Of a DNA stretch of 64,000 nt, positions 1,542 through 64,000 are shown one piece after another. Every line of letters starts with the position of its first letter. Position 1 is the first letter of the stretch. The stretch covers positions 266,104,001 to 266,168,000 of the forward strand of contig CM097883.1 in the NCBI GenBank assembly GCA_044892505.1, given 5' to 3'. This DNA comes from Schmidtea nova. Taxonomy: Eukaryota. The notes under the pieces are model-generated. The model ran no database searches. It was not told the DNA's origin and worked only from the letters and a program-made list of their open reading frames with translations. A program made the translations under genes and the position numbers.

Positions 1542-1663
1542 AATTTTGGAAGTTTCGATTTAGAATTTGGATTAATTTTGGAAGTTTCGATTTAGAATTT
1601 GGATTAATTTTGGAAGTTTCGATTTAGAATTTGGATTAATTTCGGAAGTTTCGATTTAGAATT
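1542..1663. repeat. 32-bp tandem repeat, ~3.8 copies
   Basis: AATTTTGGAAGTTTCGATTTAGAATTTGGATT starting at 1542, 1574, 1606 and 1638. Confidence 0.95.
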
Positions 1664-1664
1664 T

Positions 1665-3499: not shown

Positions 3500-3561
3500 C
3501 TTACATGTATTTTCCTTTCTCGTGTTGTTAGCTAGAGCTTGCCTTAATGTCTTAGATCTAT

Positions 3562-26200: not shown

Positions 26201-26250
26201 GTGTCGGCGGCTTCCTCTCCCTTCGTTTTTAATTTATCATTTGTTTTCAT
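23224..26250 (-). CDS. R2-type protein, 1008 aa (C2H2 ZF, Myb, RT, CCHC, REL endonuclease)
   Basis: CDFC..H...H; WTVEEE..RSKESIR (Myb); QRDPLSP and AYADD; CKAGC..SLSHISQKC; RHNKV; KPDLVI..VVDV. Confidence 0.95.
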   Translation of the reverse strand: MKTNDKLKTKGEEAADTFACDFCEAVFSTKIGKGVHTSNKHRDEHDAAKINKINKNKINSRNAIWTVEEEVRMAKVHVACERLECNRGVLMYKLGTVSADRSKESIRAHLKTVRYCKILQVLRENPDDNIYIPQNKQQVQFAHDESDKEAIIKYLSALPKKEGIDDWQERDLDYIIHGPSASDEKRRCLEIYCNDITFSHRPKGKPPRSKVSPLVKPPKDAKKHLKKEFRRKTYGALQELFKKDRSEAAKVILGGKVDSLVSGIEPVTGLGEYWRGVFERESDADTRAVETVTEESNMVLPITDSEVLNSVKEIDLKTACGPDGITTATLRTIPTSVLVKLFNLVIFLGYLPPVLKSSRTTLIPKTDNPKSPSDYRPISINSVITRVLNKILAQRTLNYDKSFSAQKGFKPIDGCLENTILLDSILSDARKNKKNIALAFIDMKKAFDSVNHDSILRAAKIAHYPKLLLNYIENSYTDAETIVDGTPATFKRGVKQRDPLSPALFNNIIELAIEKAYKTQLGYKMNGNTYPIMAYADDIILLAETKEGLQDILSSVLRELGENGLSVNAAKCASIVAKRDGKNDSWIITPERVADGEEEFPILLSNDFYKYLGIYFGPLGKMKNNLTKIFTERINNITISPIKPQQKLEVLTNFLIPGILHEAILGETDDLELCELDKITRKLVRKWLHLPKDTCFSYIHSKVKDGGMGVPTLLAEVKFAKITRLRRLADSSDGRIRGLVEQDVVRNLLAKWSKPIKTGDSLAYEKHTYYESMRDLLYKKLDGKGLCESDKVPFVHNWLKARTKLMTGRSFVNSVKVRGNLFSTPTRLSRMNGGSATSSSICKAGCGLPCSLSHISQKCTATHGMRVERHNKVMLFTADIARKKGWKTLVEPVIPYKETIRKPDLVIIKDRRAMVVDVQIVSEKSDLRERNTTKSKVYDEIEIRDWVLGQGADTVEFGALTLNWRGIWAEDSWDTVQKFGVTQSDAMLISLKVLNWTARMYCAWKNWH

Positions 26251-30502: not shown

Positions 30503-33500
30503 CGAGGCATATGGCTAGAGAAACTCATAGATAAAGTATAAAACGAGCTATTAACCTGGAGTTTTATTTTCCTTTTTAAGCACAGGCTCTTTGTAAGGTC
30601 AGTTTGTTTTGGAACCAACCTACGCAGATGCTTCACTCGTTTTTCCCACCAAGGATTAGCAGGAGTAATAAACTCTTTATCGGAGTCTTTCCCCAAAAGC
30701 CAACATACGTTTTACCGCTTTATTAGCAATTGGTTTGCCTGCACACTTTACTCAGAGTGTACATAGGTAGCAATCCCTAGAGATTACTCAGTGCCTCATC
30801 ACCTTTGGACCATCTATCACCTTTACTTACACTTGGTAAACTTCCTCTCTTTGTACTCGTGTTAGTTTATTAGTGTCGAAGTGATAGATTAATGCCAGTC
30901 GAATCATAGTGGCAAGCCACAAAATCAACGACCAACATTCAACTTACATGATAGATCAACGGATTCTTTAGAGGACAAAAGATACTTGTGGTATCCGGCT
31001 CCCCCTGCGCTGCCCCCACCACAGGTACGTTATTAAGGCAATCGTATTACCGGCCGCGTTGACGCATGTAAACCCACTTAGCAAGCCAAGTGGTGCAGTT
31101 TATCTTTTTATAACTGGTGGTCCTACTCCCACACTGTCTTTACAACTTAACACCAACCAGCTCCGAATATCTTGCTTTCGCTGTCATTTAAACGGTGAGA
31201 CTGGCACTAAGCTGCGCTGCCAATGGTTATGATAAGTAGTCATAACTCGTGTAGTCCTATTCAGCAATCTGAATAGCGTAGTTTGTCTTTTTGTAGCTGG
31301 TGGTTCTACTCCCACACTGCCGGACAAGCATCGTACTCATCCTCATACAAACACTAATACTCTATTAAACTCGAGGCTTTGATAATGTCTTGCCTGACTC
31401 TTCAAGAGATTTATATACATGTTTGCGTCCAGTTTTCCCGGTTCATTATTATTATTAAGATAAAATAAAATAAAATAAAGTTAAAAGGATACGATTGTTC
31501 TTGTAGAGAAGATCGAATAGGCCTAAAGAAAACTCAAAGTAATTGAACTTACCACAGGGTCTCCTCGAATGCACGACTTGGACCTAACTAGCGGGATTTA
31601 TACTAAGGGAGTTCCACCCATTCTTGCACCCTCAGCCGATCGTGCACCCACCCTTTAAGCGAAAGGAAGACCCTCTACGGACTGTCGGGAGAGTTCTTCG
31701 CAGCTTCTTCTGTTATCCCTACAATGGGTCTCGGAAGCGGCCCCAAATCCACGAGTGAAACCTACGAAGCAATCTTTCCTTCTAAATATTTTGTAAATAA
31801 GTAATTTAATTAAATCTGCCCCCTATTTTATAGTCAAGCAAACATACAGACAAACAACCAGACAACCAGAGACTAAATGAAAATAAGTAAACAATAAATA
31901 AAATAAGAAACGAAATGTGAGTTTAGTATATAGAATATATGGTTATTTTAATAATAAAGATAATGTTATAAACCAATACTGTTATTATATAAACATACAA
32001 ACTATAAGTGCCAATTCTTCCAAGCGCAATACATTCTCGCCGTCCAATTTAGTACTTTCAGAGATATGAGCATGGCGTCTGACTGCGTGACACCGAATTT
32101 CTGTACGGTGTCCCATGAATCCTCGGCCCAGATACCCCGCCAGTTCAGCGTTAACGCACCGAACTCTACTGTATCTGCCCCCTGTCCAAGGACCCAGTCA
32201 CGTATCTCAATCTCATCATATACTTTGGACTTTGTAGTATTCCGTTCTCTCAGATCTGACTTTTCACTAACAATTTGTACATCCACGACCATAGCACGGC
32301 GGTCCTTGATAATTACTAAATCCGGTTTCCGTATAGTCTCTTTATACGGTATAACCGGTTCCACAAGGGTCTTCCTCCCCTTCTTCCTCGCGATGTCAGC
32401 TGTAAAAAGCATCACTTTATTGTGTCGTTCCACTCGCATTCCATGCGTAGCAGTGCACTTTTGTGATATGTGGCTAAGACTGCAGGGTAACCCACAACCC
32501 GCCTTACATATAGATGATGAAGTGGCGGAGCCGCCATTCATACGACTGAGTCGCGTCGGGGTACTAAAAAGGTTTCCACGAACTTTGACACTGTTGACGA
32601 AGGATCTACCTGTCATCAACTTAGTCCGGGCCTTAAGCCAGTTATGAACAAAAGGCACCTTGTCGCTTTCACACAGACCCTTCCCATCTAGCTTTTTATA
32701 CAACAAGTCTCGCATCGACTCGTAATAGGTATGTTTTTCGTACGCCAGGGAGTCACCAGTTTTAATAGGCTTACTCCATTTGGCTAACAAGTTTCTGACG
32801 ACATCCTGCTCCACTAATCCGCGAATCCTTCCATCACTGCTATCGGCAAGCCTCCTCAATCTAGTTATCTTCGCAAACTTCACCTCAGCCAAGAGAGTAG
32901 GTACCCCCATTCCTCCATCTTTAACTTTGGAGTGAATGTACGAAAAGCACGTATCTTTGGGTAGATGTAGCCATTTGCGAACAAGCTTCCGGGTTATCTT
33001 GTCCAGTTCACAAAGCTCCAAGTCATCGGTTTCGCCTAAAATTGCTTCGTGCAAAATGCCCGGTATAAGGAAGTTAGTTAAGACTTCCAGTTTTTGTTGT
33101 GGTTTAATAGGGGAGATAGTAATATTATTAATGCGTTCTGTAAATATTTTAGTTAAGTTATTTTTCATTTTACCCAGCGGACCAAAATAAATGCCTAGAT
33201 ATTTATAAAAATCATTTGATAACAAAATGGGAAATTCCTCTTCACCATCGGCCACTCGCTCCGGCGTTATTATCCAACTGTCATTCTTCCCGTCTCTTTT
33301 GGCTACAATGGATGCACACTTTGCAGCATTCACTGAAAGACCATTTTCACCAAGTTCTCGAAGAACAGAAGAAAGAATGTCTTGGAGTCCTTCTTTGGTC
33401 TCAGCTAGAAGGATAATATCATCAGCGTAGGCCATAATGGGATAGGTATTTCCATTCATCTTGTATCCGAGTTGGGTTTTGTAGGCTTTCTCAATCGCCA

Positions 33501-36500
33501 ACTCAATAATGTTATTAAAAAGTGCGGGTGAAAGCGGGTCCCTTTGCTTTACACCTCTTTTGAACGTAGCTGGCGTTCCATCTACAATAGTCTCGGCGTC
33601 AGTGTAGCTATTTTCTATATAGTTTAAAAGTAGTTTGGGGTAATGGGCTATTTTTGCCGCTCTCAAAATACTGTCATGATTGACAGAATCAAAAGCTTTC
33701 TTCATGTCAATGAAGGCGAGGGCAATATTCTTTTTATTTTTACGTGCATCTGAGAGGATGGAGTCTAGTAAAATGGTATTCTCTAGACATCCATCAATGG
33801 GCTTGAACCCTTTTTGGGCTGAAAAACTTTTATCATAGTTTAGGGTTCGCTGAGCGAGAATTTTATTTAAAACTCTAGTTATAACTGAATTTATTGAAAT
33901 AGGCCGATAATCACTTGGACTTTTTGGATTATCGGTCTTTGGTATTAGCGTTGTTCTGGAGCTTTTTAGAACCGGAGGAAGATAACCTAGAAAAATAACC
34001 AAATTAAATAACTTTACCAATACAGACGTTGGGATCGTCCTTAGTGTTGCTGTAGTAATGCCATCAGGACCACAGGCAGTCTTCAGGTCTATTTCCTTAA
34101 CTGAATTCAGAACCTCTGAATCGGTTATAGGTAAAACCATATTACTCTCCTCAGTTACAGTCTCTACCGCTCTTGTATCAGCATCTGATTCCCTTTCGAA
34201 AACCCCACGCCAATACTCACCCAGACCCGTGACTGGTTCGATACCACTCACCAAAGAATCGACCTTCCCCCCGAGTATCACTTTGGCTGCCTCACTTCTG
34301 TCTTTTTTGAATAATTCTTGGAGAGCTCCATATGTTTTTCTTCGGAACTCTTTCTTCAGATGCTTCTTCGCATCCTTGGGCGGCTTGACTAGTGGGCTAA
34401 CCTTACTACGGGGTGGCTTTCCTTTGGGACGATGGCTAAAGGTTATATCATTACAATATATCTCTAGACATCTTCTTTTTTCATCAGACGCAGAAGGACC
34501 GTGGATAATATAGTCAAGGTCGCGCTCTTGCCAATCATCGATACCTTCCTTCTTTGGTAGTGCGGAGAGGTATTTAATGATTGCTTCTTTGTCCGATTCA
34601 TCGTGGGCGAACTGAACCTGCTGCTTGTTTTGCGGTATGTAAATATTGTCGTCAGGGTTTTCCCTTAACACTTGTAATATTTTACAATACCTAACCGTTT
34701 TCAAGTGTGCTCTAATGGACTCCTTGGAGCGATCAGCACTAACGGTCCCTAATTTGTACATTAAAACTCCTCTATTACATTCGAGTCTCTCACATGCCAC
34801 ATGCACCTTAGCCATGCGGACTTCCTCCTCAACAGTCCAAATTGCGTTACGCGAGTTGATTTTATTTTTATTTATTTTATTTATCTTAGCGGCATCGTGT
34901 TCATCACGATGTTTGTTACTGGTGTGTACCCCCTTCCCAATTTTAGTCGAAAAAACTGCTTCACAAAAATCACAAGCGAAAGTGTCGGCGGCTTCCTCTC
35001 CCTTCGTTTTTAATTTATCATTTGTTTTCATTTTTCATTTTTCAGTTTTTAAGGGAGTGTTTTACAGTAAGACACACTCCCTTGGTAATGTCTCACCGTC
35101 CTAAAATTAACCTACGTAGATACCTTACCTAGTTCTTTAGTGGTGGTGGTCGTATACAATCTTATTCTTAAGCATTATTATTTTCCTAGCATGAAAGCCC
35201 ACATACAACCAGTAGTTTGTTGTATGTGGGCTTTCATGTTAGCATGCTCCCTGATACCGGAGCATTACTTTAAAAGACAATATAACTACAATATAACTAC
35301 ATATTTAAAAGTCTGTGCAAAATGCCCACATAGTACCCCTTGGGGCACTATGTGGGCAATTATACATTACAACTTTTGTACACAAATGAAAATACATTAT
35401 ACACAATATGACATCAGTACTATTAACTACATATTTAAAAGTCTGTGCAAAATGCCCACATAGTACCCCTTGGGGCACTATGTGGGCAATTATACATTAC
35501 AACTTTTATACACAAAATCAGAATTTACAAATACAGATTGGTGGGGAGGACATACTGGGCCAGTCCTCTCCTTATATAATACCATAGTTAATACTTAAAT
35601 ACCTGAGTACTAATTTATTTCAAGTACCTAAAATACCTGGAAGCCTTAAAATACCTGAAATACCTAAAATACCTACAATACCTAAAATACCTACAATACC
35701 TACAATACCTACAATACCTAAAATACCTACAATACCTAAAATACCTACAATACCTACAATACCTAAAATACCTACAATACCTAAAATAACTAAAATACCT
35801 AAAGATACCTAAAATAACTAAAATACCTAAAATACCTGAAAATAGAATGACAATATGGTTAATAATTAATATATTTAATAATTTAAGGGTCAAGGAAAAT
35901 TTTGGCGTGGCGGTGCTTGGGTTAAGGGGGAGATCTCGATCTAGTTAATACTTATGAACTAGTCAATTCTCGTACCAACATGTTTTCGGTTGAGTAGTGG
36001 CCTACTACTCCACCGAAAACTGTCAGTCTGATCTCCCTTATCCGCCCTTACCCTAGCGGCTGGTTTGAACTTATGTAGCAGTACTACACAGACCCATTCA
36101 CGTTTATAGTGAGAAGGGTATCACTCTGATCTGCCGGACGTACCCTACCCTCGCCTGATCATAACGTTGATAGGTCCGTTATGATTTTTCCTGTGGTAGG
36201 ATCTGCTCTATAGAGACTATATACTATAGAGGGTCTATCCCGCCTTGTTATTGGCAAGATAAAACTATGTAAAAATGCAAACACTAACTATGCGTAAGCA
36301 ATATATTACCTTTTTTAAGGACAGGTATAAAGTTGACCACTACCCCAAGAACGCGACTGCTTTAGACGCTTTGTTCAAGGCGAACACATGGTACTCGATA
36401 GCCCTTAATGAGAGTAATGCGGCACCGAATTGTCGAAGCACCGAAGCACTCCAATTCTTCTACCGCAGACCTAAGATCAATTGGCAATCAGTGGTATTTT

Positions 36501-41699: not shown

Positions 41700-43990
41700 A
41701 TAATCTCATTACATACACACACAAATCAACAACCGAATAGTTAATGATCAGATACCAACTGACTCTATCCACAAATAAAAAACCAACTAGTTACTTACCA
41801 GTTACCAACTGACTCTATATTAACCAACTAGGAAAATTGTTCCATATGTCAATCAATTATCTCTTCTTATTAACTAGATATCAATTAATCCAATCCCCTT
41901 AGTTAACAAACAGACCAATTCCTTACTTACTTACTACTTCTACACGTTAACCAACTAGTTCTATACACCAACCAATTGGTTCTATTCATTAATCATATAC
42001 CAACCAACCAACTACCCACTCTATACATACTAACCAGCAACTAATCTCTTACATACCAACTAGTTCTCTACATTAACCAACTAACTCTTCTCACAAACCA
42101 ACTAACTCTTCTCATTAACCAACTACTTCTATTCACAAATCCCCAACCAACTACACTAATCAACTAACTAACTATACATACTAACCAACAACTAATATCT
42201 TACTTACCAACTAACTCTTCTCATTAACCAACTAACTCTATTCACAAATCCCCAACCAACTACACTAATCAACTAATTAACTAACTAACTAACTATGCAT
42301 TCTAACCAACAACTAATCTCTTACTTACCAACTAACTCTTCTCATCAACCAACTAGTTCTATACATCAACCAACTAACTCTTCTCATTAACCAACAAACT
42401 CTTCTCATTAACCAACTAACTCTTCTCATTAACCAACTAACTCTTCTCATCAACCAACTAACTCTTCTCATTAACCAACTAACTCTATTCACAAATCCCC
42501 AACCAACTACACTAATCAACTAACTAACTAACTATGCATACTAACCAACAACTAATCTCTTACTTACCAACTAGTTCTTTATATCAACCAACTAATTCTT
42601 CTCATCAACCAACTAACTCTATTCACAAATCACCAACCAACTACACTAATCAACTAACTAACTATACACACTAACCAACAACTAATTCCTTGCTTGCTAA
42701 CTACATCAATACATCAACCAACTAACTCTTCACATCAACAAATTAACTGTTCTCATCAATCAACTAACTCTTCTCATTTACCAAGCAACTCTATTCACAA
42801 ATCCCCAACCAACTACACTAATCAACTAACTAACTATACATACTAACCAACAACTAATATCTTACTTACCAACTAACTCTTCTCATTAACCAACTAACTC
42901 TATTCACAAATCCCCAACCAACTACACTAATCAACTAACTAACTAACTAACTAACTATGCATTCTAACCAACAACTAATCTCTTACTTACCAACTAACTC
43001 TTCTCATCAACCAACTAGTTCTATACATCAACCAACTAACTCTTCTCATTAACCAACAAACTCTTCTCATTAACCAACTAACTCTTCTCATTAACCAACT
43101 AACTCTTCTCATCAACCAACTAACTCTTCTCATTAACCAACTAACTCTATTCACAAATCCCCAACCAACTACACTAATCAACTAACTAACTAACTATGCA
43201 TACTAACCAACAACTAATCTCTTACTTACCAACTAGTTCTTTATATCAACCAACTAATTCTTCTCATCAACCAACTAACTCTATTCACAAATCACCAACC
43301 AACTACACTAATCAACTAACTAACTATACACACTAACCAACAACTAATTCCTTGCTTGCTAACTACATCAATACATCAACCAACTAACTCTTCACATCAA
43401 CAAATTAACTGTTCTCATCAATCAACTAACTCTTCTCATTTACCAAGCAACTCTATTCACAAATCATCAACCAACTACACTAATCAACTAACTAACTACA
43501 CACTAACCAACAACTAATTCCTTGCTTACCAACTACATCAATACATCAACAAACTAACTCTTCACATTAACCAACAAATATTATTCATTAATCTTATACC
43601 AACCATACCAATTATATTAACCAACTAACTAACTAAACACTCTAACTATCAACCAATACCTTACTTTCCAACTACTTCTTCTCATTAACCAACTAAATCT
43701 ATTCACAAATCACCAATACTTACCTACCAAGTAGTTTTACACATTAACCAACTACTTCTACATGTTTACCAACTAGTTCTTTACATTAACCAACTAGTTC
43801 TATACATTAACCAACTAACTCTATTCATAAATCAACAACAGACTAGTTACTTATTAAATATCAATTAATTCTATTTACAATCAACTAGTTAAATCAACTA
43901 ATTGAATACCAACTGACTCTCTATATTAAACAAATAATTCTTCACTCTAAGGAAATTGTTCCACGTATCAATTAACTCTTCGCATTAACT
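41700..43990. repeat. Strand-asymmetric AACCAACT/AACT satellite with ~110-bp monomers and a 662-bp higher-order duplication
   Basis: G nearly absent on the + strand; identical track ORFs at 42325 and 42987 give a period of 662. Confidence 0.92.
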
Positions 43991-45715: not shown

Positions 45716-46194
45716 AATCTTCGAACAAAAAGATGTTGAAACAAGAAGTAATGAAAATTATTCTTGAAGAAAATTCTATTTCGGCATCAAATTTGGTTAT
45801 GAATCCTGCAGTTCAATTTCTACAATACTCGATGGAATATTTAAAATTTCCAATCATTTATTCATTTAAAGTATATATTTATTTAATTAAAATAAATTTC
45901 TAATATTTTTTTTTATAGGAACCTGTTACATTGAAACAATGCATGTATAATCTTCAAGTGGGGAAAATTGGAGATATTGATAGACGAAATATTTCAGAAA
46001 TTTTGTTAGCAATCAACAAAGAAATACAATTTAATGAAGCTTTTACGTATATGAATTGCAATAAAGATTGTAATTTGAAAAATTTCGATGAAAATTCGAT
46101 ATATCAAATTAAGATAATGATTCAAGGCTTCAAAGAATCTAATGTTGTTGTCAAGCCTGTTTGGAAAATTATAGAAACAAATATATGCGAATAA
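45716..46194 (+). CDS. Hypothetical two-exon ORF remnant (intron ~45871-45918)
   Basis: GTATAT...TTTTTTATAG intron joins two open frames; no recognisable domain. Confidence 0.3.
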
Positions 46195-46862
46195 AATTTA
46201 TTTATCAAATCTTATCTTTTCATTTTAATTTTTTTTTGTTTTGGTTAATTTAAATTTTTAATAACAATTATTTAATGTGTTAAATTTATTACCATTTAAA
46301 ATCGATTAATTTTTTATTAAAAAAAAATAATTAATTTTATTATCATAATTATTCTAAATTGATTTTGTTTTAATAATTGATTATACGTTTAAAATTAAAA
46401 TTCAAATTAATTTTCTTTAATATTTCCCGGCAACAATAATTAATTCGGAATTTGATATATATTCGAATATAAATCAAATTCCGAATTAATTATTGTTGCC
46501 AAGAAATATTAAAGAAAATTAATTTGAATTTTAATTTTAAACGTATAATCAATTATTAAAACAAAATCAATTTAGAATAATTATGATAATAAAATTAATT
46601 ATTTTTTTTTAATAAAAAATTAATCGATTTTAAATGGTAATAAATTTAACACATTAAATAATTGTTATTAAAAATTTAAATTAACCAAAACAAAAAAAAA
46701 TTAAAATGAAAAGATAAGATTTGATAAATAAATTTTATTCGCATATATTTGTTTCTATAATTTTCCAAACAGGCTTGACAACAACATTAGATTCTTTGAA
46801 GCCTTGAATCATTATCTTAATTTGATATATCGAATTTTCATCGAAATTTTTCAAATTACAAT
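46067..46862. repeat. ~800-bp spacerless palindrome centred at 46464/46465
   Basis: Arms are reverse complements with a few mismatches; centre TATATTC|GAATATA. Confidence 0.95.
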
Positions 46863-49347: not shown

Positions 49348-50460
49348 ATACCCTTCTCACTATAAACGTGAATGGGTCTGTGTAGTACTGCTACATAAGT
49401 TCAAACCAGCCGCTAGGGTAAGGGCGGATAAGGGAGATCAGACTGACAGTTTTCGGTGGAGTAGTAGGCCACTACTCAACCGAAAACATGTTGGTACGAG
49501 AATTGACTAGTTTATAAGTATTAACTAGATCGAGATCTCCCCCTTAACCCAAGCACCGCCACGCCAAAATTTTCCTTGACTATTAATTCTTTTGATTTTA
49601 TTAATTTTATTAATTATTAATCATACTATCATTTTATTTTCAGATCCTAACTTAACTACATCTATATTATATTACACTTTATTTTATATCTCATTCTAGA
49701 TTCCCCATCATCTGGATTATTTATTCTAGGTTCATCACCACTTTTCTAGGTAATTATGTATTGGAGATATAAAGGAAAATAGGCATCTAATTATTATCAA
49801 TTTAGTATTATATAAGGAGAGGACTGGCCCAGTATGTCCTCCCCCCCATGGTTATTTATAAATTTAATTTTTGTATAAAGGTTATAGTGTATAATTGCCC
49901 ACATAGTGCCCTAAGGGGCACTATGTGGGCATTTTGCACAGACTTTTAATATGTATACTATATATAATGTATTCTTATCTATATATAAAGGTTGTAATGT
50001 ATAATTGCCCACATAGTGCCCCAAGGGGCACTATGTGGGCATTTTGCACAGACTTTTAATATGTATACTATATATAATGTATTCTTATCTATATATAGAG
50101 GTTGTAATGTATAATTGCACACATAGTGCCCTAAGGGGCACTATGTGGGCATTTTGCACAGACTTTTAATTATTATCATTATTATTATTATTATTATCAT
50201 TATTATTGGTACGATTATTAATGTTTAATTCTTTTTGATGTTCTGCTAGCACGAAAGCCCACATACAGCAAACTACTGGTTGTATGTGGGCTTTCATGCT
50301 AGGAAAATAATTATAATACTTAGGAATAAGACTGTACACGACCACCACCACTAAAGAACTAGGTAAGGTATCTATGTAGGTTAATTTTAGGACGGTGAGA
50401 CATTACCAAGGGAGGGTGTCTCATTGTAAAACACTCCCTTAAAAAACCAAACCATGAAAG

Positions 50461-53400
50461 ATGAAGCCTACAAAACAAACAATTACGAAGGGAGAGGAAG
50501 CCGCCGCCACTTTCGCTTGTGATTTTTGTGAAGCGATTTTTCCAACTAAAATTGGGAAGGGGGTACACACCAGTAACAAACATCGTGATAAACACGATGC
50601 CGCTAAGATAAATAAAATAAATAAAATCAACTCGCGTAACGCAATTTGGACTGTTGAGGAGGAAGTCCGCATGGCGAAGGTGCATGTGGCATGTGAGAGA
50701 CTCGAATGTAATAGGGGAGTTTTAATGTACAAATTAGGGACCGTTAGTGCTGATCGCTCCAAGGAGTCCATTAGAGCACACTTGAAAACGGTTAGGTATA
50801 GTAAGATATTACAGGTGTTGAGGGAAAACCCTGATGATAATATTTTCATACCACAAAACAAGCAGCAGGTTCAGTTCGCCCACGATGAATCGGACAAAGA
50901 AGCAATCATTAAATACCTCTCCGCACTACCAAAGAAGGAGGGTATTGATGATTGGCAAGAGCGCGACCTGGACTATATTATCCACGGTCCTTCTGCGTCT
51001 GATGAAAAAAGAAGATGTCTAGAGATATATTGTAATGATATAACCTTTAGCCATCGTCCCAAAGGAAAGCCACCCCGTAGTAAGGTTAGCCCACTAGTCA
51101 AGCCGTCCAAGGATGCGAAGAAGCATCTGAAGAAAGAGTTCCGAAGACAAACGTATGGAGCTCTCCAAGAATTATTCAAGAAAGACAGAAGTGCGGCAGC
51201 CAAAGTGATACTCGGGGGGAAGGTCGATTCTTTGGTGAGTGGTATCGAATCCGTTACGGGTCTAGGTGAGTATTGGCGCGGGGTTTTCGAAAGGGAATCG
51301 GAGGCTGATACAAGAGCTGTAGAGACTGTAACTGAGGAGAGTAATATGGTCTTACCTATAACCGGTTCAGAGGTTATGAATTCGGTTAAGGAAATAGACC
51401 TGAAGACTGCCTGTGGTCCTGATGGCGTTACTACTGCAACACTAAGGACGATCCCGACGTCTGTATTGGTAAAGTTATTTAATTTGGTTATTTATCTAGG
51501 TTATCTTCCTCCGGTTCTTAAAAGCTCCAGAACAACGCTAATTCCAAAAACCGATAATCCAAAAAGTCCAAGCGATTATCGGCCTATTTCTATAAATTCT
51601 GTGATAACTCGAGTTTTGAATAAAATTCTCGCTCAGCGAACCCTAAATTACGATAAAAGTTTTTCAGCCCAAAAAGGGTTTAAACCAATAGATGGATGTC
51701 TAGAGAACACTATTTTACTAGACTCCATCCTCTCTGACGCACGTAAAAATAAAAAGAATATTGCCCTCGCCTTCATTGACATGAAGAAAGCTTTTGATTC
51801 TGTCAATCACGACAGTATTCTGCGAGCGGCAAAAATAGCCCATTACCCCAAACTACTCTTAAATTATATAGAAAATAGCTACACTGACGCCGAGACTATT
51901 GTAGATGGAACGCCAGCTACGTTCAAAAGAGGTGTAAAGCAAGGGGGCCCGCTTTCACCCGCACTTTTTAATAATATTATTGAGTTGGCGATTGAGAAAG
52001 CCTACAAAACCCAACTCGGATACAAGATGAATGGAAATACCTATCCCATTATGGCCTACGCTGATGATATTATCCTTCTAGCTGAGACCAGAGATGGACT
52101 CCAAGACATTCTTTCTTCTGTTCTTCGAGAACTTGGTGAAAATGGTCTTGCAGTGAATGCTGCAAAGTGTGCGTCCATTGTAGCCAAAAGAGACGGGAAG
52201 AATGACAGTTGGATAATAACTCCGGAGCGAGTGGCCGATGGTGAAGAGGAATTTCCCATTTTGTTATCAAATGATTTTTATAAATATCTAGGCATTTATT
52301 TTGGTCCGCTGGGTAAAATGAAAAATAATCTAACTAAAATATATACAGAACGCATTAATAATATTACTATTTCCCCTATTAAACCACAACAAAAACTGGA
52401 AGTCTTAATTAACTTCCTTATACCGGGCATTTTGCACGAAGCAATTTTAGGCGAAACTGATGACTTGGAGCTTTGTGAACTGGATAAGATGACCCGGATG
52501 CTAGTTCGCAAATGGCTACATCTACCCAAAGATACGTGCTCTTCGTACATTCACTCCAAAGTTAATGATGGAGGAATGGGGGTACCTACTCTCTTGGCTG
52601 AGGTGAAGTTTGCGAAGATAACCAGATTGAAGAGGCTTGCCGATAGCAGTGACGGAAGGATTCGCGGATTAGTGGAGCAGGATGTTGTCAGAAACTTGTT
52701 AGCCAAATGGAGTAAGCCTATTAAAACTGGTGACTCCCTGGCGTACGAAAAACATACCTATTACGAGTCGATGCGAGACTTGCTGTATACAAAGCTAGAT
52801 GGGAAGGGTCTGTGTGAAAGCGACGAGGTGCCTTTTGTTCATAACTGGCTTAAGGCCCGGACTAAGTTGATGACAGGTAGATCCTTCGTTAACAGTGTCA
52901 AAGTTCGTGGAAACCTTTTTAGTACCCCGACGCGACTCAGTCGTATGAATGGCGGCTCCGCCACTTCATCATCTATATGTAAGGCGGGCTGTGGGGATCC
53001 CTGCAGTCTTAGCCACATATCACAAAAGTGCACTGCTACGCATGGGATGCGAGTAGAAAGACACAATAAAGTGATGCTTTTTACAGCTGATATCGCGAGG
53101 AAGAAGGGTTGGAAGACCCTTGTGGAGCCGGTTATACCGTATAAAGAGACTATACGAAAACCGGATTTAGTAATCATCAAGGACCGCCGTGCTATGGTCG
53201 TGGATGTACAAATTGTTAGTGACAAGTCAGATCTGAGAGAACGGAATGCTACAAAGTCCAAGGTATACGATGAGATAGAGATACGTGACTGGGTCCTTGA
53301 GCAGGGGGCAGATACGGTACAGTTTGGTGCGTTAACATTGAACTGGCGGGGTATCTGGGCTAAGGATTCATGGGACACCGTACAGAAATTCGGTGTCACA

Positions 53401-53481
53401 CAGTCAGATGCAATGCTCATATCTTTGAAGGTACTAAACTGGACGGCGAGAATGTATTGCGCTTGGAGGACTTGGCACTAG
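50461..53481 (+). CDS. R2-type protein, 1006 aa
   Basis: Same domain order as the other copies; QGGPLSP in place of QGDPLSP; different N-terminus. Confidence 0.95.
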   Translation: MKPTKQTITKGEEAAATFACDFCEAIFPTKIGKGVHTSNKHRDKHDAAKINKINKINSRNAIWTVEEEVRMAKVHVACERLECNRGVLMYKLGTVSADRSKESIRAHLKTVRYSKILQVLRENPDDNIFIPQNKQQVQFAHDESDKEAIIKYLSALPKKEGIDDWQERDLDYIIHGPSASDEKRRCLEIYCNDITFSHRPKGKPPRSKVSPLVKPSKDAKKHLKKEFRRQTYGALQELFKKDRSAAAKVILGGKVDSLVSGIESVTGLGEYWRGVFERESEADTRAVETVTEESNMVLPITGSEVMNSVKEIDLKTACGPDGVTTATLRTIPTSVLVKLFNLVIYLGYLPPVLKSSRTTLIPKTDNPKSPSDYRPISINSVITRVLNKILAQRTLNYDKSFSAQKGFKPIDGCLENTILLDSILSDARKNKKNIALAFIDMKKAFDSVNHDSILRAAKIAHYPKLLLNYIENSYTDAETIVDGTPATFKRGVKQGGPLSPALFNNIIELAIEKAYKTQLGYKMNGNTYPIMAYADDIILLAETRDGLQDILSSVLRELGENGLAVNAAKCASIVAKRDGKNDSWIITPERVADGEEEFPILLSNDFYKYLGIYFGPLGKMKNNLTKIYTERINNITISPIKPQQKLEVLINFLIPGILHEAILGETDDLELCELDKMTRMLVRKWLHLPKDTCSSYIHSKVNDGGMGVPTLLAEVKFAKITRLKRLADSSDGRIRGLVEQDVVRNLLAKWSKPIKTGDSLAYEKHTYYESMRDLLYTKLDGKGLCESDEVPFVHNWLKARTKLMTGRSFVNSVKVRGNLFSTPTRLSRMNGGSATSSSICKAGCGDPCSLSHISQKCTATHGMRVERHNKVMLFTADIARKKGWKTLVEPVIPYKETIRKPDLVIIKDRRAMVVDVQIVSDKSDLRERNATKSKVYDEIEIRDWVLEQGADTVQFGALTLNWRGIWAKDSWDTVQKFGVTQSDAMLISLKVLNWTARMYCAWRTWH

Positions 53482-55440: not shown

Positions 55441-55664
55441 ATTGTGATTCAAAGTCAATTTTAAAATCAAGAATTCAAACATCTGACGTACCTCAACAAT
55501 CCAATGCTTCTTTTGATGATTTCAAGTTAAATAGTGATATCTCTGACAGTATATTTACTGAGACAATAAAGAATTTATTGATGCTTCTTTTGATCGTTAC
55601 AAAAATTACAGTATGTTGGCTGATGAAATTAAAGGTTTTGTAAAAATGGTCTTGGCTCCATTCA
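55441..55664 (+). repeat. 3' LTR of second BEL element, right half
   Basis: Colinear with 6024-6247; ends GGCTCCATTCA. Confidence 0.92.
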
Positions 55665-56286
55665 ATAATAATAATAATGGTTAGCCGCGTATAGCTCTGA
55701 TTGATTTCCTCATCAATTGAAAATTCTGTAATTTTACGAAGCTTCTTTTCCCAATAGCTTTTAGCTTCCAACTGTTTTCCACCAACCGCAACAGCTTGAT
55801 GACCAGCTACAAATCCACTTGGATCGGCATTTAATAACAGTGGCTCATCCATCTCCTTATCATATGTCAATGTGATCATTGAACAGCCTAATGGCCTCAT
55901 TTCAGCTGATTGAGTGTACAATTGATTAATATCGGCAATACATCGACAAATCATGTCACAAGACATTTCGTATCCAATTTTGCATTTAAATCGTGCATCT
56001 TCCATTTGTGCACGGCATACTTGCGATCTGGAATCAGGAATCATACCGGTCCTAACGCAACCGGTACTTTCAGTTATATTAAATAATCTTGTAGCTGAAC
56101 TCTTTTCAATCATTTTATCTGGGACTTTTCTTTGTGTAGCAACTTCGCCACAATCATTACCTCGAACACCAACAGAAAGTAATCCATCTAAAGCAATCGC
56201 TTTAAATGCATATTCGACCTGAAATAATCTGCCTTCGGGTGAAAAATAGTCATATAACGATCAAAAACACTCGAGCCCAATGAAAT
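55665..56286 (-). pseudogene. PSMA6: Proteasome subunit alpha type-6, intronless, frameshifted and truncated by the BEL LTR
   Basis: GSSVFDRYMTIF/PEGRLFQVEYAFKAI...VPDK...GMIPDSRSQV...YTQSAEMRPLGCSM...DPSG; ATT where ATG is expected; 1-nt loss in a T-run near 56245. Confidence 0.88.
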
Positions 56287-56562
56287 TTTTTAATTCATCA
56301 ATTTACAAAAACAAATATCAAAACCTCAACACAGCTAATTACAAAAATTAGTCCAGATTTAAATTCCCTAAAAAAATCACATTATTCATCAAATATTTTA
56401 AACTCCAAACCTAAAAATTCATTACAACTAGTTCAGCAAAACAAAATCTAAATCAGTCTAAAAAGTTTAATAAATTCGATAATTTGGATAAAATGTAATT
56501 TCTAGACAAAACTCGTTCAGTCGAAAACCACATTAACAAAGTCAGTTCCATTTAACTTAAAC

Positions 56563-56874
56563 TTATTCGAGCTCTTTTATTACCGCGATCTTATTGATTA
56601 TTTGTACAAGAATTTCTTGAATCTGCAAGACATTATCCGGTAGTTGATATATTTGCTTTATTGCTTCTAAATCAGTACTCGATTGTATGTTATTTCCACA
56701 GTCTATTAGCGAGTCAGTCTGTGCGATGCTTGTCTTGAAATCCTCTTCGGTAGATCCTATGGGAATCAAATATATCGCTATTATCAACTTTGTTGAAGGC
56801 TGAATGCCGATTTGCTTAAAACAGTTAGTTATTTTATTACTCATACTGAGGCAGTAAATGATTTCTGCTGCCAA
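56563..56874 (-). pseudogene. TPRKB: C-terminal half of KEOPS subunit CGI121/TPRKB
   Basis: AAEIIYCLSMSNKITNCFKQIGI, EAIKQIYQL and IINKIAVIKEL resemble [32 protein letters not shown] and IICRMSTKDV; 5' half cut off by (AAT)n and an LTR. Confidence 0.75.
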
Positions 56875-56917
56875 TATTATTATTATTATTATTATTATTA
56901 TTGTTGGGTTATTATTC

Positions 56918-57665
56918 TGTAAGATCGGTTTACTGACCTGACTCCTCGTGCTCTTTAATTATCGAAATCAATGAACCCAACACAGAACAATCTTTTTATT
57001 CACGATCAACACAAATTACAATTTTTGTTACACACACGTTTGATTAATTTACGCTTTATTTCGGATTCGGATTTGACTCTTTAATTCACAGGATGCTTTC
57101 TTACTTTGTCTGTTTAATCTCTTCAGGATCTTTCTCTATTCGTTTTCAAAGTCTTTGCAATAATCTCTTTTTAACTGTCCACTCGTCGGCCCCGTCCTCT
57201 GTTTTGCGCTGCCTTTTATAGTTCTCGCAAATAGCAATTAGGTTTATTCGATCTCTAAACGTTAATCAATTTCGGGTTTAATTGTTTTGCTGACAATTAA
57301 TTTTGATTACCCTCGAATTGATTTTCCCTAATTGCCCCGACTTTGATCTCTCGGGTCTCTTTGCGCTCGGGCTTTCCTCATCGCTCGGGTTTCCCATTGC
57401 CTCGGGCTTCCCATTGTCTCGGGTTTCCCATTGATCGATTAATTAATTTTAATTAGTTTGTTTTTATTAAATAACTTTCTCTGGGGGCCCCTTATTAAAT
57501 TTCTATTATTATTTTTGGGTTTGTCTTTTGATTTGGCATTCAACCATACCCATTTCCCCCGATGAATATTAATTTTAAATTTTAGATAAATTTTAATTAA
57601 TTTTTGCACTTTTATTTATTTTGATATTTCCTATTACCTTTTTGATTTTTATACTAACCCCAACA
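56918..57665 (-). repeat. LTR with upstream PPT, element otherwise truncated
   Basis: Minus strand AAAGGGGTGAGATA-TGTTG...CTTACA; TATAAAAG near 57215 and AATAAA near 57000-57060; internal CTCGGG(T/C)TTCCCATTG repeats; no TSD seen. Confidence 0.55.
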
Positions 57666-57749
57666 TATCTCACCCCTTTATTTAAGATTCGTCCTCGAAT
57701 CTATCTTTTCATTTATTAGACTGGTAGGGTCCACTCAATACCGTTAATA

Positions 57750-58410
57750 CATATGATAATAATAGTTTAAATTATAAATAAGATGGTAGAGTAATCTCAA
57801 TACCAACTTTAATATCCTACAATTTACTATACAAAAATTGCCCTGACAATACTCTAATGTTGATAATAATCATGATACTAATATTCATTGTAGTAGCCTA
57901 ATAATGATAATAGTGATAGAAATGACAAATCATTAATTTTACTTGTCAAATTTTATAACACTAGCAATAACAGCAACAACCATATTATAATAACAATTGA
58001 TGATATTAACAATATTGATCACTCATTCTAACAACAACATTAACACTTATACTTGTAATAATAGCAATAGTAATAATGATATTAATGGTAATATTTCTAA
58101 TAGTAATTTAACAATACAATACCTGTTACAATTATCACCAGCAATAATCATGATAATAATTTTAATATTATTAATAGTTTTAATTTTGACTAATAGTGAT
58201 TATTTTGATTTTCATTACTACTAATAATACCTCTATAATGATAATTATACTTATAATGTTGGTGTTAAGATAATAATATTAATAATACTAATATAACAAT
58301 AAAGTAACAATAAGAATTTTGATAATGTGAAAATAACCCTAATGTGATAATGTGATAATGTAATAATGTGATAATAACCATATTCACAATAATAATAATT
58401 ATTATAATTA
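57750..58410. repeat. Degenerate (AAT)n low-complexity tract (also 56876-56902 and 60240-60490)
   Basis: Read directly. Confidence 0.85.
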
Positions 58411-60441
58411 TCACATTACAGTTACAAAACAATCTTCTTTGTGGCGGGTAACTACTGGTTTAAATACCAATTATTTGGTCAACATAAAATTAAATCCTGC
58501 TATGTTAACAGCATTAGGTTAGTTTTTGTATAACTTATGCATTATTATTGAGTGAAAATACATTAATAACTTAGGACCTATTGAAAATTCCCTAAATCAA
58601 CGAATTATATATTGATTCTAATACATCTCAAATTGTTTTTGTCTTGTTAACGAGTTTAACGGTGCATTATATATTGTTACCGAACCAGAAGCACAATCCG
58701 AAAATATTATGACCTGCCGAGTGTAAAATAATCCCATTAGGATAAATTAGTTTGATGCCACTTTTCTTGTATGCATTACAATTTTTAGCGTTTTAAAGTA
58801 ATATACAAGAAACTAAATCTTAGACAAATCTAAGTATGAAAGAAATCCATACATAAAATGTATTATTGCATTTCAGTTAAATAATTTGTTCGATTTTTAT
58901 TATTTGATTGTCGGGTTATTTATGGAAATTATAAATAATTCAAATAATTATTAAGTTATAAAATCTCGCAAAATTCATCGAAACAGAATAATTTTCCAAA
59001 TTGGATTTCAGGATGTGAAACAACAATTATGATATGTATATCCTGATTATCTTGATAATTATAGTTTCAGAGCATTTAACTCTAATTGTTCTTTATTTAA
59101 TCGGCTTTGCCGATTGTCGGCATTGCCGATTGTTCCTTCCTCCGAAAAAGCCAACACTGACACTGTGACATTGACCTGATCACACACATCCATTCAATGC
59201 CTGCGTGTGCTATCTCCCTGCGTGTACACAACTCGAGATGCGATCGCAACCACTCCCAATGAGACACACATCCTACTCCAATACAAATTTTGAGTTCATT
59301 CGCGAAGTAAATTTATATTCTCTTGAATTTATTTTCGATTTGATTGGCTGGTTAACATTTAATTTTCAGGCAGTATGCGCATGCTCGGAAAAGTCTCACC
59401 TCTCGAAAGTCACAGCTCTATCATCCAATCAGAGAAACTTGTAAACATCGTTGCCGAATGTCGTGCTAGAAATTGCCCAATTATCTTTTGCTCATTTACA
59501 CATATTGGACAGCACCGAGAGAGATTTATCGGATAAAAAGGCAGTTTGATTTTTTTGTTATTGCTGCTGTGGTTATTTTCGAGTATACTAATATTCCTGT
59601 TGTTGTCTCTGATTGATTTTCATTACAAATCTTTCAATTTCTGATTTATTTAATATTTTTTGAAAGAAAACTTCGGAATTAATTTTCCTTTAAAGGGAAT
59701 TTCAAGGTATATATATATTTTTTTATTACAAGTTTTAATTTTTTTTTTTCTCTAGATAATATTTTTGGTAACTTTGACGAAAGTGATTTTATGGCAATCC
59801 ACATATTTCCTGTTGTTGTCTCTGATTGATTTTCATTACAAACCTTTCAATTTCTCTTTATGATTTTATAAAAAAAAACTTTGCAGCAGCAGAAGAAAAA
59901 AGGGAAAATAGCTGCTCTGAAATGGTTTTCTATTCACATTTGGTTTCAATTGTTGGACTTTTTTGGAATTGTGAAAAGGATCGATGGAAAATTGGTATGT
60001 AATCAATTTTTATTTCTGTTAATTTTAGATTTGCATAAATAATTTTGATTAATTTGATTAACTGTAATGAGAAGATCTATAAACATTTTTAATATTANNN
60101 NNNNNNNNNNNNNNNNNNNNNNNNNNNNNNNNNNNNNNNNNNNNNNNNNNNNNNNNNNNNNNNNNNNNNNNNNNNNNNNNNNNNNNNNNNNNNNNNNNNN
60201 NNNNNNNNNNNNNNNNNNNNNNNNNNNNNNNNNNNNNCAATAATAATACATTATAGTGCTAATTTTATACTGTCAGAAATAATTATTAATTACCATAATA
60301 CAATAATACTTATAATTAGAATAATAATAATAATAATAATACCAATAATGATAATAATAAATAATAATAATTTATAACAATGACCCTACTGCTATCAAGT
60401 AATAGTGATACTAGCATCATAATAATAATTCTAGCAATACC

Positions 60442-60481
<40 letters not shown>

Positions 60482-60707
60482 GTAATTTATTTTGCAATGT
60501 GGCTACTATCCCCTTTTTTCGTTGTGTTACCAAACACAATGATAATCATAACAATATTAACAATATCCCTATTGTTTCATTTGAATTTATTTACTTTTTT
60601 TTTTGCTATTGAGAATTATTTTATTTTTTGGGATGGGATGCCAAAACTCCAAAAAGACAATAAAAATATTTATTAATTAATTAAAATATATATACATATA
60701 TATATTG

Positions 60708-62174
60708 TTAGTCTAATTTTAATTCAATTTTTCCGATTTCACTTTTGTAGCGAATAAACGTTTTTTCGCGCCGATAAATAATCCCATTTACCGTTATGGT
60801 TTCATTGGCTTCTATTTGTGCATATTTTCTTTTTCTATTTTCGAGGTGGAGTATCGGTCCATTTTCATATGATATTGAAACTCTTGCGATAGACAAACCG
60901 GTTATTACCTCAGCGCTTTCTTCAATTGCCTCGAGATCATTTTCTGTTGCCAACTTCAATTTCGATTTCCCAATTTCCAAATCAACTTCCATATCCTCTG
61001 TCAAATCGATTTGCTCTGCCATTTTCTCAATTCCCACAGACAGGGCAATGGTTTTCGTAATTGCCGTGCTCGTCGTTGGCATTGTGTTTATGGTATGAAC
61101 TTTTCGATATTCCTCCAATGAATACTTCTTTGATGGGGTTGCTTTGGGAATTTGGATATCATCAATCCATGAATTTTCAATTTTTAGATATATTTTCCGA
61201 ATGTTTTTGACATCCTCTAGAGCTGAATGGATGCGCACTTGCATTTGTTCTCCAAGCATTTGTTCAACCACAGTTTTCAGTTTGAAAAATTCCCCTTTTC
61301 TCGATATTTCTTGCAATTGAAGTGCCTTTGCCGTGGACAAATCTCGAATGCCATATAATTGATTTGTCCAAATTTTCAAATACTGCAGTTCTGCATGCAA
61401 ATCATGGCCAACCAATATTTTCCCAACAGTTAAATTCTGAATTTGTTTCATCTCCGAATATTGGTCGCATTGGTTCCTACTCGCAATTTCTGTGATGCCA
61501 TGTATTCTCGATTGGAAATGTCTCATTTTTCCTCTCGGCGTGAGGTATATATTTTTAATTATTTTCCCAAAATAATTCATAATGGCGATTGACAATGGCA
61601 CCATTTGTCCATTTTCTGATGTGCCGTATTCTGCGTCGATAAACAATATCCTGCTTCTTATTTCTTCTTGGTTTAATTCTTTTCGAATGAAGGATAATCT
61701 TCTTTTCATCATATTTTCAGTTATTGGTAGTAACGTTGGATCTGATGGCAATCCTGACTCAGTTTGCGGAACTTCTTCTTTACTGTTTCTGAATCTTGTT
61801 TCCAGCGCGATTAGTGCGTCTTCATTTGCCGATCTAAGCTGCTTCTTTAATGCTTCCTCTCGCATTCTCCACGATGAGTCTTTGTGCATTTCCCACCATA
61901 TCCGCTGATTTTCGTCGATCATTTCCACTTTTCCTTTCAACACATGTAGTGTGAATTCTTCTTCATTCATTGCTTTGCTATTTTCCATCAACTTTACTCG
62001 TCCTTTTCTGCTTACTCTCACGATTCTTGTTTTCATTCTTCTGTCATCGCTTCTTAAATAATTCGGTATTTTTGTATTTTCATTGATTTGGAATGGGCCT
62101 TGTCCCATGTAGTTTCGATGCAATTTGAGGTAGGCATCATAGATATTTGGTATCCATTGAATTTGTTCCATCAC
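60708..62174 (-). CDS. DEDDh 3'-5' exonuclease (REX4/ISG20-like) with N- and C-terminal extensions
   Basis: ILFIDAEY (ExoI), IHGIT, KILVGHDLHAEL (ExoII), RDLS, HSALEDV (ExoIII); 488 aa, uninterrupted. Confidence 0.85.
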   Translation of the reverse strand: MMEQIQWIPNIYDAYLKLHRNYMGQGPFQINENTKIPNYLRSDDRRMKTRIVRVSRKGRVKLMENSKAMNEEEFTLHVLKGKVEMIDENQRIWWEMHKDSSWRMREEALKKQLRSANEDALIALETRFRNSKEEVPQTESGLPSDPTLLPITENMMKRRLSFIRKELNQEEIRSRILFIDAEYGTSENGQMVPLSIAIMNYFGKIIKNIYLTPRGKMRHFQSRIHGITEIASRNQCDQYSEMKQIQNLTVGKILVGHDLHAELQYLKIWTNQLYGIRDLSTAKALQLQEISRKGEFFKLKTVVEQMLGEQMQVRIHSALEDVKNIRKIYLKIENSWIDDIQIPKATPSKKYSLEEYRKVHTINTMPTTSTAITKTIALSVGIEKMAEQIDLTEDMEVDLEIGKSKLKLATENDLEAIEESAEVITGLSIARVSISYENGPILHLENRKRKYAQIEANETITVNGIIYRREKTFIRYKSEIGKIELKLD

Positions 62175-62505
62175 TGAAATATTTATAATTTAAAATTTTG
62201 TTTAATTTAAAAATTTGACGCTATCGCCAAGGTGGAATACCTTGAGTACCCCATCCTGGCTGATAACGGTATAAATTATAAATATTTAATAAAATTAATT
62301 ACCTATTTAATTTTCAGTTTTATTCTAATTTATTAATTTAGGGATTCCCTTATATTTTTAATTTTATCTCTCTTCAACCAATCAAATCCGTTTCCGATCG
62401 AAAGCGCAAATTTTACAATGAATCACATAAATATGGATAAAAGAAAGTTCATACTATTACCGTACCAATAAATTATTATAATTGCATGCAAAATTAAATG
62501 TCTCA

Positions 62506-63828
62506 CTATACAAACGTTTCCTCGTAGACAATCCACGGTCTTGGTGTCCTGGATTGACGTACTGCATGATTGTTCATTCTTTGAAAGCAAATCAGTAGTG
62601 AGAGAAGAATAACAATGAGAAATGGTGTTGCACTAATAACAATAGTTGATAAAATGATACATGTTTTTGCATTGTCGTTAGATGAAGATGATAAGTTTTT
62701 CAGAATTGTCACATCATAGATATGAGAAGGAATGATTGTCCTTTGAAATTTTTGTGTCATATTTTTATATACATAATTGTTTTTTGAATCATCGCTATCA
62801 GTAATGTTATATGAAACTCGAACAAGTTTGTTTTCGACAAGAGTGATCTGCCATTGTTTGGAATGAGAAGTAAATCGATAATATTTGATTTTCATCATAA
62901 CAAATTTTGAATTCGATATAGATCTTAATCTTTGAAAATTTAAAATTTGATGTGAAATGTTACTTGTTAATATTGCCTGAATTTTCCCACAATAATGAAT
63001 TTCGACTTTTTTATTAACTTCCGCTTGTCGGGATGCGTTTAATTTCTGATTTTTATATTCAAAGATGACTCGATTTGTTTCATTCACCAATGTCACGGAT
63101 TGTTGAGTAGAATAGATCTTGAACCATTGATTATCAATTTCAGTACCATTTTTCCGTAATGCTTTTTCGTAATAATGAATGACGAGATTATATGTTTTAT
63201 GCAATTCTAAATTAACGTAATATACATAAGGTTTCTTGAGATTTAACGTATCGATCGTGTACTTTTCGAAAATAATTTTCACTTGTTGGGATTCCTGGGG
63301 TTCCCAATATACATTGATACCTTTTATTATTGGTTCTATTGATACTTTGCTATTTAATTTTTTTGTCCAAATTTCAATTTCAAATTGATGTTGTATTTTT
63401 GTATTATTTTCTTGATATTGTTGTTGGGTTATTAACCAGGGATATTTGTAATTCATTGTTAAATCATGCGCAACGTACATATTGTTGTTAAAATTCAACT
63501 TTATTGGTGGATCAAAATAATTTAATAAATTATTTATTTTTATTTCGTCTCTTGGTTCACAATGATAGACCCATACCATTTGGGTACATGTTGCATATAT
63601 ATCAATTTTTTCTAAAAGTGGAACTCTTTTTATTGCATACATTGGAAAGATTTTAGTTGAATTTGTTCCCAAAACATTAATCATCATTACTGTTGCAATC
63701 AGTAATACTTTATTGATATATCCCAATGATGCGGAGTTTTTTGGACCCCACTGCTTGCTGATCGTTTCATTTTGCGACTTTTTCTTTTTTGATCTTAGCT
63801 GATATTTATTATCATCCATAACTGGCAC
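62506..63828 (-). CDS. Env-position type I membrane glycoprotein, possibly with FN3-like repeats
   Basis: Hydrophobic VLLIATVMMINVLG, at least 8 N-x-S/T sequons, C-terminal TM CIILSTIVISATPFLIVILLSLLICF; directly follows integrase. Confidence 0.7.
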   Translation of the reverse strand: MPVMDDNKYQLRSKKKKSQNETISKQWGPKNSASLGYINKVLLIATVMMINVLGTNSTKIFPMYAIKRVPLLEKIDIYATCTQMVWVYHCEPRDEIKINNLLNYFDPPIKLNFNNNMYVAHDLTMNYKYPWLITQQQYQENNTKIQHQFEIEIWTKKLNSKVSIEPIIKGINVYWEPQESQQVKIIFEKYTIDTLNLKKPYVYYVNLELHKTYNLVIHYYEKALRKNGTEIDNQWFKIYSTQQSVTLVNETNRVIFEYKNQKLNASRQAEVNKKVEIHYCGKIQAILTSNISHQILNFQRLRSISNSKFVMMKIKYYRFTSHSKQWQITLVENKLVRVSYNITDSDDSKNNYVYKNMTQKFQRTIIPSHIYDVTILKNLSSSSNDNAKTCIILSTIVISATPFLIVILLSLLICFQRMNNHAVRQSRTPRPWIVYEETFV

Positions 63829-64000
63829 TTTTTTGCATCTATTAGCATGAATAATAATTGTTCCGGCCTTTTATTATTTTGTGGCCGTAGTTTTAAATTA
63901 GTTTCAGTTGTATCGCATACAAGATATGGTCCTTTAAATGGTCTTTGTAGCTTTGGTGATAAACCCTTAGCTGGCTCTGGTTTGTTTACATAAACCAAAT
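63795..64000 (-). mobile_element. Ty3/Gypsy pol, integrase C-terminus
   Basis: KGLSPKLQRPFKGPYLV (GPY/F motif); continues beyond the window. Confidence 0.8.

Follow-up and report, generated by a model that had tools for sequence, protein, structure and literature searches.

A cupin-like DEDDh exonuclease as probable cargo of a multi-copy Ty3/Gypsy element in Schmidtea nova

We analysed a 64,000-nucleotide (nt) stretch of the Schmidtea nova genome (assembly GCA_044892505.1, contig CM097883.1, positions 266,104,001 to 266,168,000; hereafter the window), which contains on its minus strand P0001, an open reading frame (ORF) of 487 amino acids (aa) confirmed as real at 62171-60708, encoding a REX4/ISG20-type DEDDh exonuclease domain behind an AlkB/cupin-like domain. 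In line with the cargo reading raised in the first-pass annotation of this DNA, P0001 is very probably accessory cargo of a multi-copy Ty3/Gypsy long terminal repeat (LTR) element and not a host gene: it shares its high contig depth with a Gypsy integrase tail, it belongs to a clade separate from host nucleases (support 100/99), and a related gene occurs at a second Gypsy locus, L002. The parts of the ORF are:

60708-62171, minus strand: P0001, cupin-like and DEDDh exonuclease ORF, 487 aa
61785-62171, minus strand: N-terminal double-stranded beta-helix (AlkB/cupin-like) domain, residues 1-129, with no HxD motif visible in the sequence
61152-61658, minus strand: REX4/ISG20-type DEDDh domain, residues 172-340, with D179, E181, E261, H315 and D320 (DEEDh)
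60810-61073, minus strand: low-confidence linker, probably disordered, residues 367-454 (predicted local distance difference test, pLDDT, <50), preceding a small beta tail

The nuclease gene is intact, in agreement with the first reading of it as an uninterrupted REX4/ISG20-like gene, and its predicted model is compact (pLDDT 82), the nuclease domain having an ISG20-like fold. All five catalytic residues are in place: the D-x-E of ExoI (D179, E181) and the H-x4-D of ExoIII (H315, D320) are both present, and the ExoII position is Glu261 and not Asp, which makes this a DEEDh variant. Among solved folds, the closest ones include ISG20 and SDN1, a nuclease that degrades small RNAs, and also DNA-acting DnaQ enzymes. 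The N-terminal domain has the double-stranded beta-helix fold of AlkB and 2-oxoglutarate/Fe(II) dioxygenases, and no sequence matches to it were found in Atlas, Pfam or PDB. The HxD...H iron ligands are missing from this domain across the family, where conservation is limited to one His (H76) and one Glu (E124), and we infer that the domain is non-catalytic.

Upstream of P0001, on the same strand, lie the following features:

63795-63998, minus strand: Ty3/Gypsy integrase C-terminal tail with GPY motif (tblastn to the L002 Pol, 37% over 59 aa, E 6e-7)
62506-63870, minus strand: 454-aa membrane frame, comprising the last integrase-like residues, a hydrophobic stretch (~53-70), a beta-rich ectodomain (70-392), a transmembrane (TM) segment (402-432) and a short tail
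62200-62269, minus strand: strong RNA hairpin, intergenic, 20-90 nt upstream of the acceptor-like site
62174-62180, minus strand: 3' splice-acceptor-like ATTTCAG, 2 nt before the P0001 ATG

Contigs from four runs (X1-X4; one study, none on record as RNA) were compared across 56500-64000, contig depth not being a strict copy number. Where single contigs cover the exonuclease, membrane frame and integrase tail, depths were 546-814 in X1 and X3, against 51-87 at the flank (57915-59990), and the same comparison gave 9.7-15 against 2 in X2 and 6.2-6.5 against 2-3.7 in X4. P0001 is not single copy, its contig depth in X1 and X3 being about 8-10 times that of the flank, a ratio which should not be read as a strict number of copies, and the depth of the exonuclease gene rises and falls with that of the integrase tail. 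Moreover, contigs bridging the membrane frame and the start of the exonuclease were found in X2 (62050-62591) and X4 (61973-63310).

The window itself holds only the GPY tail, the remainder of pol lying beyond its edge, and the full order of protease (PR), reverse transcriptase (RT), RNase H (RH) and integrase (IN) is present in a relative. A JGI scan gave six loci, of which L006 is host-like, L003 is the same element as L002, and L004 and L005 are too short to show pol. In L002 the Gypsy pol (PR-RT-RH-IN) is followed by two family members, the first catalytically dead and the second intact, and by an ORF with weak likeness to ubiquitin; this locus, the clade's other case with long context, has its family genes immediately after a complete Gypsy pol. 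Locus L001 starts with the tail of a dead paralogue similar to that of L002, before an intact gene (E 1.7e-9). The dead paralogue lies directly upstream of the intact nuclease gene at L002:7268-8740 and at L001:1-280 (tail only). The L002 pol (L002:3-7106) is one 2368-aa Gypsy polyprotein: besides PR, RT, RNase H and integrase it holds a second aspartic protease and ankyrin repeats, and its integrase is followed by a TM-ectodomain-TM module.

A search of 1.84 billion representatives returned 61 proteins at E up to 1e-10, and the family members that were looked up came from unannotated metagenome and read assemblies. The family rows are diverged, the 64 of them standing at <50% identity or near that level. 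A profile of the N-terminal domain matched 55 of 157 proteins tested, all on the same side of the tree and none in the host-like clade. The large tree was built from a quick search and used 148 of the 157 rows, those without a 120-residue domain match being dropped. A careful tree of the nuclease domain, with 40 rows chosen after seeing the quick tree, divided 19 family rows from 21 host-like rows with a split support of 100/99, and its host-like side includes named REXO4, ISG20L2 and AEN proteins of animals and fungi. P0001 therefore falls outside the host REX4 relatives, and forcing it onto the host-like side was rejected by the approximately unbiased (AU) test (p 0.031, with rows chosen after the quick tree).

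Among the 64 family rows, Glu stands at ExoII in 21 intact ones and Asp in 19; catalytic residues are altered in a further 15, and 9 rows are incomplete, whereas 76 of 82 host-like rows read DEDHD. The Glu at ExoII, which the first-pass annotation had pointed out, is a lineage trait and not decay, because 21 of 40 complete intact family members share it and 0 of 82 host-like rows do; the other four catalytic residues are kept in all 21 complete Glu-type members. The catalytically dead forms cluster in the quick tree (18 rows, Shimodaira-Hasegawa-like approximate likelihood ratio 95), and a member of this subclade stands in tandem with an intact copy at two loci (L002 and L001). Between L004 and L005 the ratio of non-synonymous to synonymous substitution (dN/dS) was 0.09 in the N-terminal domain, 0.11 in the nuclease and 0.39 in the tail, at a dS of 0.7-2.0 and with an internal stop in L005; in the comparison of L001 with L002, dS was saturated. 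Judged from these sequences, the family as a whole is under purifying selection and has diversified into DEDDh, DEEDh and catalytically dead forms. The upstream DNA of L004 (L004:1-228) and L005 (L005:1-224) is 97% identical and the nuclease ORFs behind it 72% identical, which suggests cassette exchange between elements.

Family alignments found no confirmed relatives in IMG/VR, where the L002 pol was also searched, or in GTDB genomes. The literature search, which did not cover Repbase Reports, most subscription journals and supplements, found no REX4/ISG20-like or cupin-fused nuclease described for LTR elements. The cupin-exonuclease family is large, fast-changing and apparently undescribed.

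The membrane frame had been taken for a glycoprotein gene in the env position. We consider it most likely to be a membrane-spanning extension of Pol that is broken in the window copy, because it begins with residues matching the end of the L002 integrase, it overlaps the integrase frame near 63870, and the frame break there is absent from most contigs of the four runs; the equivalent layout lies inside the single L002 polyprotein. The integrase-tail start and the break missing from most contigs speak against a separate env gene downstream of pol. The ectodomain carries nine NxS/T sites and FN3-like motifs, the FN3 likeness being a weak lead (Atlas leads <0.9), and the single-sequence model of the frame was unusable (pLDDT 34). 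Looking for fusogen homology of the F or gB type, we found no Pfam match and no homologues, nor was a furin site (R-x-K/R-R) found in the frame. This case is a warning that a membrane ORF in the env position of a Gypsy element can be a Pol extension without fusogen homology.

Expression of P0001 from a spliced RNA, proposed from the ATTTCAG, stands in part. A YAG occurs 0-2 nt from the ATG in the window, L001 and L002, that is, in three of the five family ORFs with 5' context, against three of 57 background ATGs; this excess favours real acceptors, used in cis-splicing or leader trans-splicing. No YAG is present within 40 nt of the ATG of the dead L002 gene, and the distance grows to 3 nt in L005 and 19 nt in L004. 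The ubiquitin-like ORF of L002 has a YAG 1 nt from its ATG; this further acceptor-led ORF (L002:10924-11517), with a weak ubiquitin/SUMO-like match (E 0.04), is ended by the contig end. Among 231 windows the hairpin at 62269-62200 ranked first (z -8.5), and a 91-nt stretch there gave z -5.4. L001 (401-418) and L002 (8819-8835 and 8908-8924) have in common a short GC-rich motif with hairpin potential upstream of the intact nuclease ORF, doubled in L002 by an 89-nt tandem and without an Rfam match. Rfam gave nothing at gathering level in the window or the loci, and ARAGORN found no tRNA there.

Downstream of P0001 we examined three features bearing on the 3' end of the element, including candidates for its polypurine tract (PPT):

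60508-60519, minus strand: PPT-like 12-mer named in the first-pass annotation, rejected; outside the multi-copy part and followed by an ATT microsatellite
57666-57808, minus strand: repeated 3' internal segment ending in a purine tract (57679-57668), which is probably the true PPT of the family
56902-57665, minus strand: 764-bp LTR-like repeat with TG...CA ends, terminal inverted repeats, a TATA-like box and AATAAA

The 12-mer was ruled out as the element PPT by the depth beside it (at flank level by 60624, with 82 and 106, and 14-18 at 60547-60555, with no cover at these places in X2 or X4) and by the adjacent microsatellite. At 57717, depth was about 900 in X1 and 730 in X3, like the element interior, and it was higher within the repeat. 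A 17-mer spanning the PPT/LTR junction recurs with one change 524 nt behind the homologous ORF of L004 (E 0.016, noticed by eye); nine IMG/VR matches to this 17-mer were taken as chance because none has family domains. It is likely that 57665-56902 is the 3' LTR of the same element family. A joint in X1 and X3 contigs (57616-62068) was set aside because its short side spans just 23 letters, as was the bin 60265-60515, which overlaps a skipped repeat. A second strong hairpin (minus strand, 59050-59149, z -6.8) lies in the DNA between the exonuclease and the LTR.

As for function, we tentatively favour, at somewhat less than even probability for the explanation as a whole, a cargo exonuclease that serves as a counter-silencing RNase. 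By sequence and tree, the capture of a REX4/ISG20-type 3'-5' exonuclease, joined to an AlkB/cupin-like domain, happened long ago in a Gypsy lineage. P0001 would be translated independently of Pol, its message being spliced at the acceptor immediately upstream of the ATG, either by cis-splicing from the LTR or by leader trans-splicing, and its job would be counter-defence, through two-metal 3'-5' trimming of small RNAs or of element-derived RNAs that feed host silencing. The beta-helix domain may give substrate or partner binding, a role that the dead tandem paralogues could keep as decoys or adaptors. One reason for this preference is that conflict genes typically duplicate, diverge rapidly and keep dead twins. 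The other is that the nearest folds, ISG20 and SDN1, act on non-self or small RNAs, non-self RNA in the case of ISG20 (PMC9157404). Nuclease activity of P0001 is plausible from its residues, and the DEEDh arrangement is catalytically active in coronavirus ExoN (PMC7654266).

Several points weigh against this explanation. The ORF and the LTR are about 2.9 kb apart at flank depth, with an N gap and no well-supported contig bridging them, and the 5' LTR lies beyond the window edge. Direct linkage to pol comes from two independent loci only (the window, and L002 = L003), and no equal of the 62269-62200 hairpin was found upstream of the homologous ORFs in related loci. Furthermore, conservative D/E changes can cripple other DEDD enzymes, according to a remark on Klenow in PMC7654266, and Rodriguez et al. 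(PMC5408684) saw no clear relation of the exonuclease ORF3 to copy number in rotifers.

An alternative, unlikely in our view yet the best placed, is that the cargo helps replication within the particle, either by proofreading or by trimming a 3' end, be it of the genomic RNA, the primer or the cDNA. For the DEDDy ORF3 of rotifers, a role in 3'-end processing was suggested by Rodriguez et al. (PMC5408684). The DNA-acting DnaQ enzymes among the fold neighbours and the purifying selection fit such a role. Against it, P0001 is encoded apart from Pol, processing alone hardly accounts for a dead tandem paralogue and, as a weaker point, a search for long fused forms (1198-3420 aa) gave only a host REXO1. 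Such an enzyme is also missing from most Gypsy elements.

More doubtful still is a cargo directed at competitors, in which an ISG20-like RNase degrades or translationally blocks the RNA of viruses or rival elements and hosts tolerate its carrier; such an enzyme would need to leave the RNA of its own element unharmed, and the family is far from ISG20 in the tree. It is improbable that P0001 acts by binding only, with the Glu-type and dead members being pseudo-enzymes that bind RNA in the manner of Maelstrom or EXD1: catalytic residues are gone from 15 of 55 complete rows, which nevertheless endure as a clade, and the Glu at ExoII departs from 76 of 82 host-like rows, but the other four residues survive in every complete Glu-type member and DEEDh enzymes are active (PMC7654266). 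A host REXO4/ISG20L2 gene or retrocopy, adjoining an LTR fragment or passively transduced by it, is very improbable and already largely refuted, for although the 12-mer fails as a PPT, the LTR lies 2.9 kb off across unrelated DNA and the AU rejection reaches p 0.031 only, the high depth is common to the ORF and the integrase tail, the clade is separate and has its own N-terminal domain (55 of 157 proteins, none host-like), and linkage behind pol recurs independently in L002.

The counter-silencing reading can be extended to a picture that is speculative and, taken whole, rather unlikely: an unrecognised complex Gypsy group organised like accessory-gene-rich viruses, with a Pol whose FN3-like surface domain replaces a fusogen and an acceptor-led accessory array built on a captured ISG20-type nuclease joined to an AlkB-like reader, the intact enzyme destroying marked (for example methylated) silencing RNAs and the dead twin acting as decoy or adaptor. 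If true, a transposon in an animal would encode an enzyme that suppresses small-RNA silencing, on a cassette swapped between elements. It is an open question how retrotransposons survive small-RNA silencing, and few enzymes encoded by elements are candidates for countering it; the family offers one that can be assayed, and its naturally occurring intact, Glu-type and dead variants would serve as internal controls.

Elsewhere in the window, four related non-LTR RT ORFs of up to about 1010 aa were seen at 14599-17124, 23224-26253 and 32002-35034 (minus strand) and 50458-53481 (plus strand), three of them spaced about 8.7 kb, and no rRNA, snRNA or tRNA target gene for them was found in the window. 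RT fragments lie at 3556-4752 and 8722-9774, one with a GIY-YIG domain (Penelope-like). Further fragments are an intronless proteasome alpha subunit (55493-56260, minus strand) and a TCP-1 chaperonin (1608-2261, plus strand), both possible retrocopies, and DUF5641 (559-1278, plus strand). A near-perfect 398-nt palindrome without spacer (46067-46862, 99% complementary) is possibly an assembly artefact, and 41900-43900 is a complex satellite with a 21-nt unit, extreme GC skew and a 662-nt higher-order repeat.

Compared with host REXO4, ISG20, ISG20L2 and AEN (PF00929; PDB 1wlj, 7yw5), the family forms a separate clade at about 22-25% identity in which ExoII is often Glu, and P0001 has an extra N-terminal domain and is multi-copy and intronless inside a repeat. 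The planarian giant Gypsy elements Burro/GYPSM1 have polyproteins with added ankyrin repeats and ubiquitin/SUMO-like domains (PMC6431247), and L002 shares with Burro the ankyrins in Pol and a weak ubiquitin-like ORF. Section 7 of that paper names no exonuclease in Burro, whose env is fusogen-like and lies between gag and pol, unlike the membrane domain here, which follows the integrase and lacks a fusogen match. In errantiviruses, the env-bearing Ty3/gypsy elements (PMC13524379), a Gypsy pol is likewise followed by a glycosylated membrane domain, but in our case an env of the F or gB type and a furin site are not in evidence, and the domain looks to be a fused part of Pol. Searched for exonuclease, ankyrin or fibronectin, the main text of that paper gave no match. 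Nidovirus nsp14 (DEEDh) and arenavirus NP are captured DEDDh-type exonucleases in RNA-genome replicons, nsp14 sharing the DEED chemistry and immune suppression being a feature of arenavirus NP (PMC7654266, PMC7968707).

The closest known system, also cited in reviews, is the exonuclease ORF3 of bdelloid Juno/Vesta LTR retrotransposons and Terminons (Rodriguez, Kenefick, Arkhipova 2017, PMC5408684), which is also a DEDD-superfamily exonuclease in a separate ORF downstream of a Gypsy-like pol, is likewise altered to DEED and is described as expressed from spliced messages; the shift from DEDD to DEED seen here parallels the rotifer and coronavirus cases. ORF3, however, is an RNase D/mut-7/WRN-like DEDDy enzyme, whereas P0001, with His315 and Asp320, is a REX4/ISG20-like DEDDh enzyme and does not show the ExoIII Tyr of the RNase D-like DEDDy type. 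Unlike ORF3, the P0001 family has an AlkB/cupin-like N-terminal domain, tandems of dead and intact genes and a Pol running into a membrane domain. By its predicted domains and motifs, P0001 would work like the rotifer ORF3 yet is not a member of that family. With it, LTR elements have captured a DEDD exonuclease a second time, independently, from another nuclease branch and in a new architecture.
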